Shown here: in pieces, positions 49,951 through 55,044 of the stretch | Numbering within the stretch: position 1 is the first letter of the stretch | Layout of the letters: each line of letters opens with the position of its first letter | DNA from: a virus | Taxonomy: Duplodnaviria; Caudoviricetes | Length of the DNA stretch: 64,000 nt | IMG/VR virus record: IMGVR_UViG_3300020238_000002 | Coordinates: 6,898-70,897 of that record | Strand: one strand, 5' to 3' | Program-made: the position numbers and the translations under genes | The notes under the pieces: generated by a model | The model's input: the letters and a program-made list of their open reading frames with translations, nothing else | Database searches by the model: none | Told to the model about the DNA's origin: nothing

Positions 49951-52254
49951 ATGACGTCTATTAACGTAACCAAGCGCAGTGGTGAAACTGAGCCATTTAA
50001 CATTGACAAGATTCACCGAGTGCTGGAATGGGCTTGTCAAGACTTAGTTGGTGTATCAGTCTCTGAAATAGAGATGAGAGCTAACGTTCAAATATATGAG
50101 AAGATGCGTTCGACATCTATTCATGATCTCTTAATCAAATCAACATCGGAGCTTATTACTGAAGCTACACCTAACTATCAAACTGTTGCAGCAAGATTAA
50201 TCAATTACAAACTCAAGAAAGTTGTTTATGGTGACAAGGATCCATGGCCACTCAAAGATATTATTGAACATAATATTGATGCTGGAGTCTATGATCCTGA
50301 CATATTAAATATGTATTCTGAAGCTGAAATAGATTATATTAATGACCATATAATAGATCATTCACGAGATGATGACTTTACATATGCTGGCATGGAGCAG
50401 ATGAGGTCAAAGTATCTTGTACAGAATCGAACGGATGGCACAATATATGAAACACCTCAAGTGCTTTATATTATGATTGCTATGACATTATTCGGTAGGT
50501 ATAATGGAAGACGTATGAAATTTGTAAGAGACTTCTATAACGCTATATCACAATTTTATATCTCATTACCAACGCCTATTATGGCTGGTGTGAGAACTCC
50601 AACAAGACAATTCAGTTCATGTGTTGTATTAGAATCAAATGATTCTCTTGACTCAATCAATGCAACATCAACATCAATCGTTAAATATATTTCAAAGAAA
50701 GCTGGCTTAGGTATTAATGCTGGTAAGATCAGAGCTGTAGGTTCTCATATTGGTGATGGTTCAGTTGTACATACTGGTCTTATACCATTCCTCAAGTTAT
50801 TCCAAGCAAGTGTAAAGTCTTGTTCACAAGGTGGAGTACGTGGTGGAGCAGCAACAGTTTATCTACCGGTATGGCATTATGAGTTTGAAGATCTTGTTGT
50901 ATTAAAGAATAACCGTGGTACAGAAGAGACTCGTGTACGTAACATGGATTATGCCTTCCAATTTAATAAGCTTATGTACGAGAGATTATTAACTGGTGGG
51001 AACATTACTTTCTTCTCACCTGATGACGTACCTGGATTATATGATGCATTCTTTGAAGATCAAGATTTATTCCAAGAGTTATATGAAAAGTATGAAAGGT
51101 CCCGTAAGATTCGTAAGAAATCTTTACCAGCTCTTGAAGTATTCTCTCAATTCTTGACAGAACGTAAAGAGACAGGACGAATCTATTTACAAAATGTAGA
51201 TCATGCAAATACACATGGTGCATTCATCGAGAAGCAGGCCCCGATACACCAGTCGAATTTGTGTTGTGAAATTGATTTACCTTCACATGGTTTAGAATCA
51301 TATGATGATGCAAACAAAGGTGAGATTAGTTTATGTACATTATCTGCAATTAACTGGGGATTAATTAATGATCCGAAGGACTTCGAGAAGTATTGTGAGT
51401 TAGCTGTACGTTCTCTTGATGCTTTACTTGATTATCAAAACTATCCTATTGTTGCAGCACAAAGATCAACAATGAATAGAAGACCGTTAGGTGTAGGTAT
51501 TATTAACTTTGCATACTTCTTAGCAAAGAGAGGTTTAAAATATAATGATGATGCTCTTGCTACAGTTGATGAATACGCAGAAGCATGGTCATATTATCTT
51601 ATTAAGGCAAGTGCAGATCTTGCAAAAGAGAAGGGAACTTGCTATAAGGTCTTAGAGAGTAAATACGGACATGGTATCTTGCCAATAGACACATATAAAA
51701 AAGAGGTTGACGAACTAGTCAAGCACAAAGAAAGAATGCCATGGCAATCATTAAGAAAACAGTTACAAAAATCTGGTATACGTAATAGTACATTAATGGC
51801 TATTATGCCAGCTGAAACATCTGCCCAGATTGGTAATGCTACAAATGGTGTAGAACCACCTCGTGCACTTGTATCATACAAGCAATCGAAGGACGGAGTC
51901 ATGGCACAGGTTGTACCACAAATACACAATCTTAAAAACAAATACGATTTGCTATGGGATCAGCAAGGACCCGAAGGTTACTTAAAGATCATGGCAATCA
52001 TTCAAAAGTATGTTGACCAGGGTATATCTGTAAATACAAGTTATAACCCAGCTCAATACGAAGACAATAAAGTTCCTATGTCAGAAATGATGAAGGATCT
52101 TGTCACATTCTACAAATACGGAGGTAAGCAATTATATTACTTTAATACGAATGATCTAACTAACGAGGATGAATCAACTGAGCTTGATAAGACTCGTGAG
52201 GATTTTGCGACACAACAGGAGTATGATGACTATTGTGAGAGTTGTGTATTATAG
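49951..52254 (+). CDS. nrdA: Ribonucleotide reductase class Ia alpha subunit
   Basis: ATP cone (VTKRSG), QFSSC, SNLCCEI, KQLYY, C-terminal CESC. Confidence 0.98.
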   Translation: MTSINVTKRSGETEPFNIDKIHRVLEWACQDLVGVSVSEIEMRANVQIYEKMRSTSIHDLLIKSTSELITEATPNYQTVAARLINYKLKKVVYGDKDPWPLKDIIEHNIDAGVYDPDILNMYSEAEIDYINDHIIDHSRDDDFTYAGMEQMRSKYLVQNRTDGTIYETPQVLYIMIAMTLFGRYNGRRMKFVRDFYNAISQFYISLPTPIMAGVRTPTRQFSSCVVLESNDSLDSINATSTSIVKYISKKAGLGINAGKIRAVGSHIGDGSVVHTGLIPFLKLFQASVKSCSQGGVRGGAATVYLPVWHYEFEDLVVLKNNRGTEETRVRNMDYAFQFNKLMYERLLTGGNITFFSPDDVPGLYDAFFEDQDLFQELYEKYERSRKIRKKSLPALEVFSQFLTERKETGRIYLQNVDHANTHGAFIEKQAPIHQSNLCCEIDLPSHGLESYDDANKGEISLCTLSAINWGLINDPKDFEKYCELAVRSLDALLDYQNYPIVAAQRSTMNRRPLGVGIINFAYFLAKRGLKYNDDALATVDEYAEAWSYYLIKASADLAKEKGTCYKVLESKYGHGILPIDTYKKEVDELVKHKERMPWQSLRKQLQKSGIRNSTLMAIMPAETSAQIGNATNGVEPPRALVSYKQSKDGVMAQVVPQIHNLKNKYDLLWDQQGPEGYLKIMAIIQKYVDQGISVNTSYNPAQYEDNKVPMSEMMKDLVTFYKYGGKQLYYFNTNDLTNEDESTELDKTREDFATQQEYDDYCESCVL

Positions 52255-52334
52255 AGAAAAATATTCTACAGAATCTAGCTTTTGTAGAAAAATTTTATCT
52301 TTTTTAATGAACACCGCAAAATAGTTGCGTTTAG

Positions 52335-52365
52335 TATGTACAAAGTATATAAATTATGTTATAAT
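52335..52365 (+). promoter_or_regulatory. TATGTAC-N18-TATAAT promoter, with late promoter TATAAATA at 52394
   Basis: Motif copy heading the island that contains the tmRNA. Confidence 0.75.
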
Positions 52366-52404
52366 AGTTCCATGTTATCAAGATTAGGTTTGGTATAAAT
52401 AATT

Positions 52405-52548
52405 ATGGATTTATTAAATTACTTACTATTAGGGGTTATTCTTACCCTCGGGGCCACAGGATTATTATCCTGGGCTATCTTCCCAATTTTCCTTGAACTG
52501 AATGATGAGCTAAATGAAAAGTTTAAGGACGAGAACCCTTCGAGATAA
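52405..52548 (+). CDS. Small membrane peptide (47 aa, not in ORF track)
   Basis: MDLLNYLLLGVILTLGATGLLSWAIFPIFLELNDE... Confidence 0.4.
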   Translation: MDLLNYLLLGVILTLGATGLLSWAIFPIFLELNDELNEKFKDENPSR

Positions 52549-52586
52549 GGCTAAACTACTTTTTATAAAACGACATAGGAGAATAT

Positions 52587-52814
52587 ATGTTAGATAAAAT
52601 CACAAGCGGCGTTAGTGCTGCATCGGCTATTGCAATGTCACTAATTGGTTTAGCAATCTTATTGCAAATCGTATTTGGTGGAGCAGTACCTTTCCTTGGC
52701 GGTGACGTCATTGGTACGATCATTGGTATAGTCCAACAGCTAGGAGACGCTGGTTTAGTTGGTTTGATTTCTGCAGCGGTTTTGTGGAAGCTACTAACTC
52801 ATGATGATGCTTAA
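52587..52814 (+). CDS. Small integral membrane protein
   Basis: Almost entirely hydrophobic; AGGAG RBS. Confidence 0.75.
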   Translation: MLDKITSGVSAASAIAMSLIGLAILLQIVFGGAVPFLGGDVIGTIIGIVQQLGDAGLVGLISAAVLWKLLTHDDA

Positions 52815-52839
52815 TAACATTCATTCAATAATGAAGTGA

Positions 52840-53100
52840 GCTAGATAACGACGTAAAGGTAAAAGTAGGAGCACTTAAGACGTGGGTTCAATTCCCACCT
52901 CCTCCACCAAATAGATTTAAAATAGATTTATTTAATGGGGGAGACAAGGCATCGATTAGGTAGCAGAGCCGCTTGAGACTCGTCAGCCAACAAAGGCTTA
53001 AAAATGAAAATTTAATCGGCAATCAAAACGATTATTTACTAGCTGCTTAACGGCTAGTTGAGGTTTTCTTCCGGAGTTCCTTATCACCCAATACTCCGGA
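52840..53100 (+). ncRNA. ssrA: Circularly permuted (two-piece) tmRNA; tag peptide GNQNDYLLAA (outer boundaries approximate)
   Basis: T-arm GTGGG-TTCAATT-CCCAC plus CTCCTCC-A-CCA (52882-52909) precedes the 5' acceptor strand GGGGGAG (52937-52943), giving a 7-bp stem with G3:U70. Tag ORF is at 53018-53050. Confidence 0.9.
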
Positions 53101-53109
53101 TTTTCTTTT
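53070..53109 (+). terminator. Hairpin + T-run at tmRNA 3' end
   Basis: TCCGGAGT...ACTCCGGA followed by TTTTCTTTT. Confidence 0.6.
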
Positions 53110-53123
53110 ATATACATAATACC

Positions 53124-53450
53124 ATGATAAGCATAACGGATCACGCTATTGAAAAATTACAGGTTCTTTTAAAAAGTGAAGCTGGAATGACTCCTAAAAG
53201 CTTAAGGGTATTAGTCAAAACTACAGGCTGTTCTGGCCTAGCATATAATTTAGAGTATGCATACTATGCAAACAAAGAAGACATCATACAACAGTTTGAT
53301 GGCTTTCGTGTTTTTATAGATCCTAAATCATATGTGTATGTAGAAGGATGTGAGATAGACTATAAGTACGAAGGTCTAAATGAAGGATTTGAATTTTATA
53401 ACCCTAAAGAAAAAGCCAGATGTGGCTGTGGAGAATCATTTACAGTATGA
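53124..53450 (+). CDS. iscA: A-type Fe-S carrier IscA
   Basis: ISITDHA, VKTTGCSGLAY, EGLNEGFEFYNP, CGCGESF; ATG at 53124. Confidence 0.92.
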   Translation: MISITDHAIEKLQVLLKSEAGMTPKSLRVLVKTTGCSGLAYNLEYAYYANKEDIIQQFDGFRVFIDPKSYVYVEGCEIDYKYEGLNEGFEFYNPKEKARCGCGESFTV

Positions 53451-53971
53451 ATATATTTTATTTAGATAAAGATGCAAAGACTAGTGCAGAGATGCACCTT
53501 GACAAACATTGTAGTAAGATGCTAGTGGAATACGCACAGCTTATGTCTACAGCTCACCGTGTTCTTGACGGTACAGAGTATTATGACAAAAACAAAATTG
53601 GTTCAAAGATCAAACGCTGGAGGCATGAGGAAGATGCACTATATAAAGCTTCACATGTTAATCATCCGAGCAATGTGTGGCTTCGTCAAAGTATAAATAA
53701 TTACGCATTCCTCTATGAGATGTGGTGCCATCTACACGATGAATTTGTTATACGCTATGGCAAAGATCATATGTCATTCGTAAAACTCAAAGAAGTACTA
53801 AAGAACCCACCGCGTAATTGTGGTGATAGTCCATTTACACAACCGACACAAGCCATGCCTGACGATGTCAAGCATAGTGATAGCATTACTGCCTATAGAA
53901 ATTACTATAAGAAGTATAAGCAACATATCGCAGCATGGAAGACGGTTACACCAAGCTGGTATACTGTATGA
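53447..53971 (+). CDS. Pyrimidine-dimer DNA glycosylase / DenV-family-like protein
   Basis: MNIFYLD, DKHCSKMLVEYAQL, YKASHVNHPS, QAMPD, AYRNYY. Confidence 0.75.
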   Translation: MNIFYLDKDAKTSAEMHLDKHCSKMLVEYAQLMSTAHRVLDGTEYYDKNKIGSKIKRWRHEEDALYKASHVNHPSNVWLRQSINNYAFLYEMWCHLHDEFVIRYGKDHMSFVKLKEVLKNPPRNCGDSPFTQPTQAMPDDVKHSDSITAYRNYYKKYKQHIAAWKTVTPSWYTV

Positions 53972-55044
53972 AAAAAAGCGTATTTAAAATAAACACAAAA
54001 GGACACATGGATAAAGATCTATTCTTTGATGAAGGTGTCGACGTAGCAAGATATGATATTGTAAAATATTCACAATTACAAAAACTATATGAAAAGATGT
54101 TATCATTTTATTGGACTCCTGATGAGATCGATGTCACAAAAGACAAGATTGATTTTAGTAAGCTAACAAAGAATGAGCAACATATATTTACATCCAATCT
54201 CAAAAGACAAATCTTATTAGACTCAGTACAGGGCAGATCACCTGACTTGGCTTTATTGCCACTTGCAAGTAATCCTGAACTTGAGTTACTCATTGAGACG
54301 TGGGCATTCTTTGAGACTATTCATTCGAGATCATATACTCACGTGATCAGAAACGTGTATCCTAATCCTTCGAAGGTCTTCGATGAGATTACTTCGATAC
54401 CAGCAATATCCGAGTGTGGTAATGCAATCTCAGAACATTATGACAACCTGATCAATTATAGAGGCCCTCACGGTAGCTATAAGCATAAAAAGCTGTTATA
54501 TCTATGTTTAGTTTCTATATACATATTAGAAGGTATAAGATTTTATGTAAGCTTCGCATGTTCATGGGCTTTCGCAGAGCTTAAGCAAATGGAAGGTAAT
54601 GCAAAGATTATTAAATTAATTGCAAGAGATGAGAACTTACATCTTGCAGCTTCGTTAAATATTATACGTACTCTCTTAAAAGAAGATGAGGATTATGTGA
54701 AGATTAAAGAAGAAACTGATGGTCAAGTTCATCAACTATTTGAAGATGCATTAGTACAAGAAGAGGAATGGTGTGATTATCTATTTGGTAACGGTTCAAT
54801 GATTGGATTAAACGCTGACCTCTTAAAAGAATATGTACGTTGGATTGGTGCAAAGAGAATTAAATCTCTAAATTATCATGTACCATTTTCAGTACATCAG
54901 CATAACCCACTTCCATGGACAGAGAAATGGATTAGTGGCGGAGCAGTACAAGTTGCTCCACAAGAAACAGAAATCACATCGTATGTGCTCGGTGGAGTTA
55001 CACATGATGTCAATAAAAAATCATTCGAGGGATTAAGCTTATGA
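53968..55044 (+). CDS. nrdB: Ribonucleotide reductase class Ia beta subunit
   Basis: FYWTPDE, LLDSVQGR, ETIHSRSY, EGIRFYVSFACS, RDENLH, VAPQETEI. Confidence 0.97.
   Translation: MKKSVFKINTKGHMDKDLFFDEGVDVARYDIVKYSQLQKLYEKMLSFYWTPDEIDVTKDKIDFSKLTKNEQHIFTSNLKRQILLDSVQGRSPDLALLPLASNPELELLIETWAFFETIHSRSYTHVIRNVYPNPSKVFDEITSIPAISECGNAISEHYDNLINYRGPHGSYKHKKLLYLCLVSIYILEGIRFYVSFACSWAFAELKQMEGNAKIIKLIARDENLHLAASLNIIRTLLKEDEDYVKIKEETDGQVHQLFEDALVQEEEWCDYLFGNGSMIGLNADLLKEYVRWIGAKRIKSLNYHVPFSVHQHNPLPWTEKWISGGAVQVAPQETEITSYVLGGVTHDVNKKSFEGLSL

Follow-up and report, generated by a model that had tools for sequence, protein, structure and literature searches.

A circularly permuted, beta-like tmRNA gene between nrdA and nrdB in an uncultured lineage of marine T4-like phages

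The two-piece tmRNA of betaproteobacteria was reportedly described by Sharkady and Williams in 2004. For phages, Buchholz et al. described in 2022 the two-piece tmRNA of the OM43 phage Melnitz (PMC9004378). Among 133 unique phage tmRNAs, 53 were two-piece forms, and permuted tmRNAs were found in 17 of 47 related contigs; 50 of the 53 are stated to be marine or aquatic, although the paper's own supplement table labels several permuted entries as human or soil (PMC9004378). The locus analyzed here is a genuine phage ssrA gene, very probably functional, of a kind already known from that paper (PMC9004378). The novelty implied in the initial annotation of the locus is not upheld, since two-piece tmRNAs of marine myophages have been in print since 2022.

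The window, that is the whole stretch of 64,000 nucleotides analyzed, corresponds to positions 6898-70897 of an IMG/VR virus record that is 70,897 bases long and has a completeness rating of 39%. All long ORFs of the window lie on one strand. When its proteins were scanned against PHROGs, 21 of 25 were matched, and the matches include a T4-like core: tail sheath, portal, scaffold, major head protein, family-B DNA polymerase, UvsX, replicative helicase, ssDNA-binding protein, NrdA and NrdB. No isolate phage has a capsid protein more than 52.8% identical to that of the window (the nearest being Melnitz, HTVC008M, S-SKS1, C48C1 and Mosig), and the phage therefore belongs to a distinct uncultured T4-like lineage. 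In the marine metagenome DNA runs X11-X14, which come from three studies and carry no mark as possible sources of the stretch, 0.90-0.97 of its words are present. None of the five records from the window's clade, of which the largest has 140.5 kb and is 78% complete, was found to contain a psbA-type gene, so that nothing marks the phage as a cyanophage.

ARAGORN makes one gene call in the whole 64 kb; the gene is a permuted tmRNA, spans 52817-53141 and has the tag GNQNDYLLAA. The Rfam model tmRNA_permuted (RF04321) matches 52849-53050 over its full positions 1-213 with 87.2 bits (cut-off 47, E 2.4e-15) and is the sole Rfam match in the window at gathering thresholds. The 258-nt precursor is predicted to fold at -73.9 kcal/mol (z = -4.06), and none of 200 shuffles folds equally well. 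The gene runs from an acceptor piece through a 27-nt hairpin spacer to a coding piece, and rereading the sequence confirmed to the base where the initial annotation had placed its elements. The features of the locus are as follows.

52337..52401, + strand: promoter-like sites in the spacer downstream of nrdA, sigma-70-like TGTACA-17-TATAAT at 52337-52365 and T4-late-like TATAAATA at 52394-52401
52587..52814, + strand: orf75, small hydrophobic protein gene just upstream of the tmRNA (ORF list)
52820..52835, + strand: short hairpin TTCATT-CAAT-AATGAA between the orf75 stop and the tmRNA
52849..52909, + strand: acceptor piece, the 3' half of the tRNA-like domain (Rfam alignment; T-stem and P2 covariation)
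52850-52880, + strand: P2 strand of the acceptor piece (Rfam alignment; P2 pairs covary)
52882-52898, + strand: T-arm, GUGGG 52882-52886, loop UUCAAUU, CCCAC 52894-52898
52899-52905, + strand: 3' acceptor strand CTCCTCC, followed by A73 at 52906 and the encoded CCA at 52907-52909
52910..52936, + strand: intervening segment, 27 nt, A+T-rich, hairpin by MFE fold, presumably removed at maturation
52937..53099, + strand: coding piece (Rfam alignments, covariation)
52937-52943, + strand: 5' acceptor strand GGGGGAG, pairs with 52899-52905
52948-52955, + strand: conserved GG..UCGA of the coding piece
52956-52984, + strand: P2 strand of the coding piece, joins the two pieces
52985-52998, + strand: small hairpin of the coding piece
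53018..53050, + strand: tag frame, resume codon GGC, GNQNDYLLAA, stop TAA (ARAGORN)
53038..53058, + strand: stop-codon hairpin, CTAGCTG 53039-53045 / CGGCTAG 53051-53057, stop in the loop
53059..53109, + strand: pseudoknot and terminator-like end, UGAGG 53059-53063 with loop CCUUA 53079-53083 (covariation, beta_tmRNA alignment)
53071-53077 / 53093-53099, + strand: 3' hairpin CCGGAGT / ACTCCGG, followed by the T-run ATTTTCTTTT at 53100-53109
53124..53450, + strand: gene for a HesB/IscA-like iron-sulphur cluster protein (Pfam PF01521, 53.4 bits), downstream neighbour and not part of the RNA

Besides its score, the gene has what defines a permuted tmRNA of RF04321: the order of the pieces with their 7-bp stem, the G3:U70 pair with A73 and CCA, the T-arm, and a tag with a stop hairpin. 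The acceptor stem consists of seven pairs in which G3 (52939) stands opposite U70 (52903), G3:U70 being the determinant for AlaRS, and the T-arm has a loop of 7 nt. We read the 3' hairpin at 53071-53099 together with ATTTTCTTTT as a putative terminator; its absence from the list of the terminator scan results from the 8-nt loop limit of that scan.

The subtype was assessed with the three specific Rfam models. The best-fitting one is beta_tmRNA (RF01850); on the window's own record its global alignment covers positions 1-331 and scores 70 bits (E 1.2e-22), short of the cut-off of 84. alpha_tmRNA (RF01849; 38.3 bits, cut-off 50) and cyano_tmRNA (RF01851; 30 bits, cut-off 70) align to the tRNA-like part only, at model positions 84-170 and 53-123, respectively. 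Covariance-model support, on which the initial annotation had made its reading depend, is thus present for RF04321 and lacking at the cut-offs of all three subtype models, beta coming nearest. Among relatives, RF01850 is passed by L023 (88.9 bits), and L011 (73.7), L029 (73.2), L019 (53.5) and L007 (42.2) remain below 84. In common with the betaproteobacterial two-piece tmRNA, the window RNA has a tag of 10 codons, a hairpin that contains the stop codon, and a 3' hairpin whose loop reads CCUU..ACC; this 3' hairpin and its loop are both aligned by the beta_tmRNA model. The window RNA differs in lacking the last hairpin of the model and, as 70 bits lie below the curated cut-off, we call the gene beta-like and not a member of the curated beta_tmRNA family.

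Compared with tmRNAs of isolate phages, the closest parallels are in Melnitz and in the Pelagibacter phages HTVC008M and Mosig. Like the window phage, these are T4-like marine phages whose permuted ssrA is complete and has a tag with LAA at its end, and they have no smpB; their major capsid proteins are about 52% identical to that of the window. All four genes pass RF04321 (Melnitz 113.4 bits, Mosig 93.6, HTVC008M 90.6, window 87.2). In contrast to the window gene, which is matched by alpha_tmRNA only locally, the three others are of alpha type (Melnitz 106.7, HTVC008M 83.8, Mosig 67.6). The surroundings also differ: the Melnitz tmRNA is described as lying upstream of the late transcription coactivator (PMC9004378), whereas that of the window lies between nrdA and nrdB, and a glutamine riboswitch is found just after the Melnitz gene but not in the window, where none was detected in 52000-54000 at the gathering cut-off or at E <= 1. 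Synechococcus phage S-SSM7 is another marine T4-like phage with a permuted tmRNA (RF04321 78.5 bits); its gene is of cyano type, with 109.4 bits for cyano_tmRNA against 30 for the window, and has a 31-residue tag.

A beta-type permuted tmRNA is present in Stenotrophomonas phage DLP_6, which is also T4-like (capsid 51% identical). The DLP_6 gene (KU682439.2, 102838-103059; L178) scores 103.7 bits with RF01850 and 136.8 bits with RF04321. It differs in coming from a soil phage, in its tag ANDDSFAPMAIAA and in its position at the head of a tRNA cluster instead of in the nrd cluster, and its RNA is 50% identical to that of the window. Stenotrophomonas itself has a one-piece tmRNA. With a beta-type gene also in a soil phage, the beta-like form is not unique to the window's clade and is no safe guide to the host. 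The DLP_6 tmRNA is entered as 'Permuted' in the supplement 2 table of PMC9004378; the GenBank record KU682439.2 has no feature for it, and it sits there between two hypothetical genes. Sequence identity between the window RNA and isolate-phage tmRNAs of all types is 45-54% and does not discriminate the types. When the 325-nt gene was compared by blastn with 50,697 isolate phage records, seven short T-arm matches were obtained, each covering at most 15% of the query; judged by this search, no close copy of the gene is found in an isolate phage among these records.

Relatives were collected from IMG/VR. An exact 26-base string spanning the T-arm and acceptor strand is present in 26 contigs, of which 11 receive a permuted tmRNA call from ARAGORN and the other 15 all pass RF04321. 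A degenerate pattern of the 3' hairpin is found in 58 contigs beside the window, including all 26 matched by the string. The gene is full-length in 53 of the 58 and cut by contig ends in five. The 53 full-length genes and the window yielded 36 distinct sequences, which were aligned (alignment A1).

The RNA structure and the tag are under purifying selection in this clade of related phages. RNAalifold predicted 64 pairs from A1, 18 of them with compensatory changes; adding the pseudoknot (53059-53063 with 53079-53083) brings the number of pairs to 69. Over the 36 copies, 99.4% of the 2484 cells pair, compared to 37-48% when partners are slid by 1-3 columns. Pairs changed on both sides number 19, compared to 2-4 with slid partners, and, as the 36 copies form a fairly tight clade (nrdA 81-100% identical), some of these compensatory changes reflect events that happened once, were inherited and are counted in many copies. 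None of 500 shuffles matched the observed values on four of five measures, and 13 of 500 did on the fifth (further pair types). Changes on both sides are found in the T-stem, P2, the hairpin at 52985-52998, the stop-codon hairpin and the pseudoknot. In the T-stem two of five pairs changed on both sides, one of them being UA in 29 copies, UG in four, and CG, GC and AU in one each. Pairs of the stop-codon hairpin are split AU 25 / GC 10 and CG 27 / UA 9, and a pseudoknot pair is split UA 33 / CG 3, with 100% of the pseudoknot cells paired. The seven-pair acceptor stem reported in the initial annotation, 52899-52905 with 52937-52943 and including G3:U70, is invariant in all 36 copies. The central claim of that annotation, a phage-borne permuted tmRNA, is borne out by the ARAGORN call, the 87.2 bits for RF04321, the T4-like core genes and this covariation.

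The tag had been proposed as GNQNDYLLAA at 53018-53050 with its stop inside a hairpin; it is present as described (GGC AAT CAA AAC GAT TAT TTA CTA GCT GCT TAA) and the hairpin covaries in relatives. The frame is open in all 36 distinct copies, with 10 codons in 26 and nine in 10, and ends with TAG in 14, TAA in 13 and TGA in nine. Indels are of whole codons only. Codons 6 and 8-10 show synonymous variation at most: the Tyr of codon 6 never varies, the Leu of codon 8 is spelled CTA or TTA, and the final two Ala use all four GCN codons. Codon 7 is Leu or Ala, and Ser, where present at codon 4, is TCA or AGC. Together, the whole-codon indels and the synonymous spellings indicate that the frame is read as protein. 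There are nine tag variants, every one ending in Y[L/A]LAA. The description of the tag as non-canonical is not supported, as 10 codons is the length of the Rfam beta consensus, to which the tag aligns without gaps, its LAA end is the usual one, and a Gly first codon is also found in Pelagibacter phage Mosig (GEDNFALAA). The tag strings are absent from supplement files 2-4 of PMC9004378 and from the supplement of PMC11915505.

The spacer between the pieces is conserved as a helix. In the window, 52909-52919 pairs with 52923-52933 in the MFE fold, and this hairpin is stacked on the acceptor stem and begins at the last base of CCA. Seven pairs of the helix changed on both sides in the 36 copies, two of them being split AU 18 / UA 18. 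The duplicated spacer sequence reported initially, AATAGATTTA at 52910-52919 and 52921-52930, is real in the window but is not conserved, and relatives keep the helix with other letters. Spacer length among relatives varies from 26 to 133 nt. In six of the 36 copies (L196, L203, L204, L206, L210 and L216) CCA is replaced by CCU (A1 column 63, window 52909), and in these copies the partner base in the spacer helix is switched from U to A. This compensating change indicates that the precursor helix is maintained even where this sacrifices the encoded CCA, and the CCU copies would then need a CCA-adding enzyme of the host.

A spacer of 133 nt is found in another six of the 36 relatives (L014, L007, L020, L021, L028 and L188), where it carries a 50-codon ORF (1534-1686 in L014). 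The ORF reads MKEIIWHFSCK.C.GWW...FCPHCGKPY..., with two CxxC pairs; its last nine codons overlap the 5' acceptor strand, and the spacer ends still pair around it. Differences between copies are mostly at synonymous sites. The match to Zn_ribbon_8 is weak (17.5 bits, under the cut-off), and this zinc-ribbon ORF gave no tblastn match in isolate phages.

The tmRNA gene lies between nrdA and nrdB, and in the same place wherever flanks were checked. In 26 loci with 1.5-kb flanks, orf75 is present in 25 (79-100% identity, always in the same place), nrdB in 24, the IscA-like gene in 23, likewise in the same place, and nrdA in 19. orf75 has no PHROG or Pfam match. A 47-codon hydrophobic ORF at 52406-52549, too short for the ORF list, directly follows TATAAATA (52394-52401); counting orf75, the tmRNA is preceded by two small genes of membrane type. 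The hairpin at 52820-52835 keeps its stem in most rows of a 27-row alignment, with a varying loop (CAAT, CAAA, ATTC), the stem being altered in a few rows such as L028 and L019; it may act as a processing or leader element.

The sigma-70-like sites in the window are not above chance (three found, 4.3 expected). TATAAATA, given as the T4 late promoter in PMC9004378, occurs 19 times against 10.7 expected. The sites at 52337-52401 could possibly mark the start of a unit comprising the small ORF, orf75 and the tmRNA, although such a placement is no better than chance. In RNA libraries, contigs from four of four runs (three studies) cover parts of the stretch within 52473-53109 and 53447-53500, and a contig of 559 nt from a relative, with 12 differences and 3 gaps, extends from orf75 through the whole gene to 53109. 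As the contig stops (52820, 52853) and the uncovered parts are not readable as RNA ends and RNA libraries may contain DNA, these contigs are only compatible with co-transcription.

The absence of smpB from the window, already remarked in the initial annotation, extends to the whole 70.9-kb record and to the records of five relatives (up to 140.5 kb): none contains SmpB (PF01668), the six records being fragments, 39-78% complete, which do not prove absence from the whole genomes. Dependence on the SmpB of the host is the simplest reading. We consider it highly likely that the locus is a functional, circularly permuted two-piece ssrA gene, carried by an uncultured marine myovirus of the T4-like group. 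The RNA would be transcribed together with the upstream small ORFs and end at the 3' hairpin. Host RNase P would cut before G52937, and host nucleases would trim the spacer until the CCA end at 52909 is reached and also cleave the 5' leader near 52849, leaving two RNA pieces held together by base-pairing. Assuming compatibility with the host factors, host AlaRS would charge the RNA with alanine, and host SmpB and EF-Tu would bring it, in the course of infection, to ribosomes that have stalled on broken mRNAs. Translation would resume at GGC, appending (A)GNQNDYLLAA, and ClpXP-type proteases of the host would degrade the tagged product, which would free ribosomes and amino acids for phage protein synthesis. 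The purpose suggested in the initial annotation, countering host cleavage of tmRNA or tRNA, gains no support, as nothing in the analysis bears on it.

Other roles can be envisaged for the RNA. Given that the phage encodes no SmpB in any of the six records, the tRNA-like domain might compete as a decoy for host SmpB, AlaRS or ribosomes and so block host trans-translation without tagging, a role reported for the tag-less form of DS6A (PMC11915505). Such a role does not fit the selected tag frame of the window gene, which is open in 36 of 36 copies, with whole-codon indels and with synonymous spellings in the last five codons except codon 7; the stop-codon hairpin covaries as well, and a decoy would need neither hairpin nor tag frame. 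We regard the decoy as unlikely. It is slightly more improbable that the gene serves chiefly in RNA processing or stability, with RNase P and RNase E sites provided by a tRNA-like fold separating the orf75 mRNA from downstream messages and tagging being vestigial. The location within a string of same-strand genes without a convincing promoter of its own, and the strong conservation of the spacer helix that extends the acceptor stem, would be in keeping with that role. However, the mRNA-like half (tag, stop hairpin and pseudoknot) is conserved as much as the tRNA-like half, and the invariant G3:U70 matters for charging and not for cutting.

A passenger origin, in which the gene would be a host ssrA acquired by imprecise excision, or a kept attachment site, without a role in lytic growth, appears very improbable. 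tmRNA genes often serve as sites of integration, and prophages can contain pieces of them (PMC9004378), but the gene here is complete. Furthermore, no tyrosine integrase (PF00589) was found in any of the five records searched (largest 140.5 kb), the genome is T4-like, and the gene occupies one fixed nrdA-nrdB site in many diverged relatives, where it is under selection.

In addition to the functional ssrA reading, we tentatively propose a wider scheme, which is possible although rather doubtful. The beta-like ssrA of the clade might be a phage-propagated lineage, passed on vertically in the nrdA-nrdB cluster and independent both of the alpha-type genes of pelagimyophages and of host tmRNA. Its tag (..DY[L/A]LAA) might have been shaped by the phage so that stalled products are directed to one particular protease of the host, and the spacer might likewise be phage-shaped, as a slot that takes up small genes, such as the 50-codon zinc-ribbon ORF in six relatives, so that one precursor would be both messenger and stable-RNA precursor. 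A search for a donor gave no candidate: the acceptor-stem pattern, which is loose, had at least 120 chance matches in genome contigs, with no ARAGORN tmRNA call in the 120 among the matches listed, and the beta_tmRNA cut-off was reached in none of 151 genomes drawn from one class (including two unpublished genomes, G146 and G044).

The general phenomenon having already been published, existing knowledge of the tmRNA mechanism is unchanged. With the present analysis, the phage-encoded two-piece tmRNAs known so far gain a family of 58 contigs that is well supported, and at least three architectural types of tmRNA (alpha, cyano and beta-like) are now found in marine T4-like phages. The location of these types at different genome positions points to repeated acquisition or to long separate descent. 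From the covariation data a clean model of the precursor also emerges, in which the spacer helix is conserved and, in some copies, even takes precedence over the encoded CCA.

Two minor observations concern single members of the family and the window itself. The T-loop is UGCAAYU in L189, L201 and L207, compared to UUCAAUU in others, which places a G at the usually invariant U55 position. Between the IscA-like gene and nrdB, the window carries a 183-aa ORF (53420-53971) that matches phrog_624 'DNA binding protein' and has no Pfam match; present in only four of 26 related loci, it seems to have been inserted into the nrd cluster recently.
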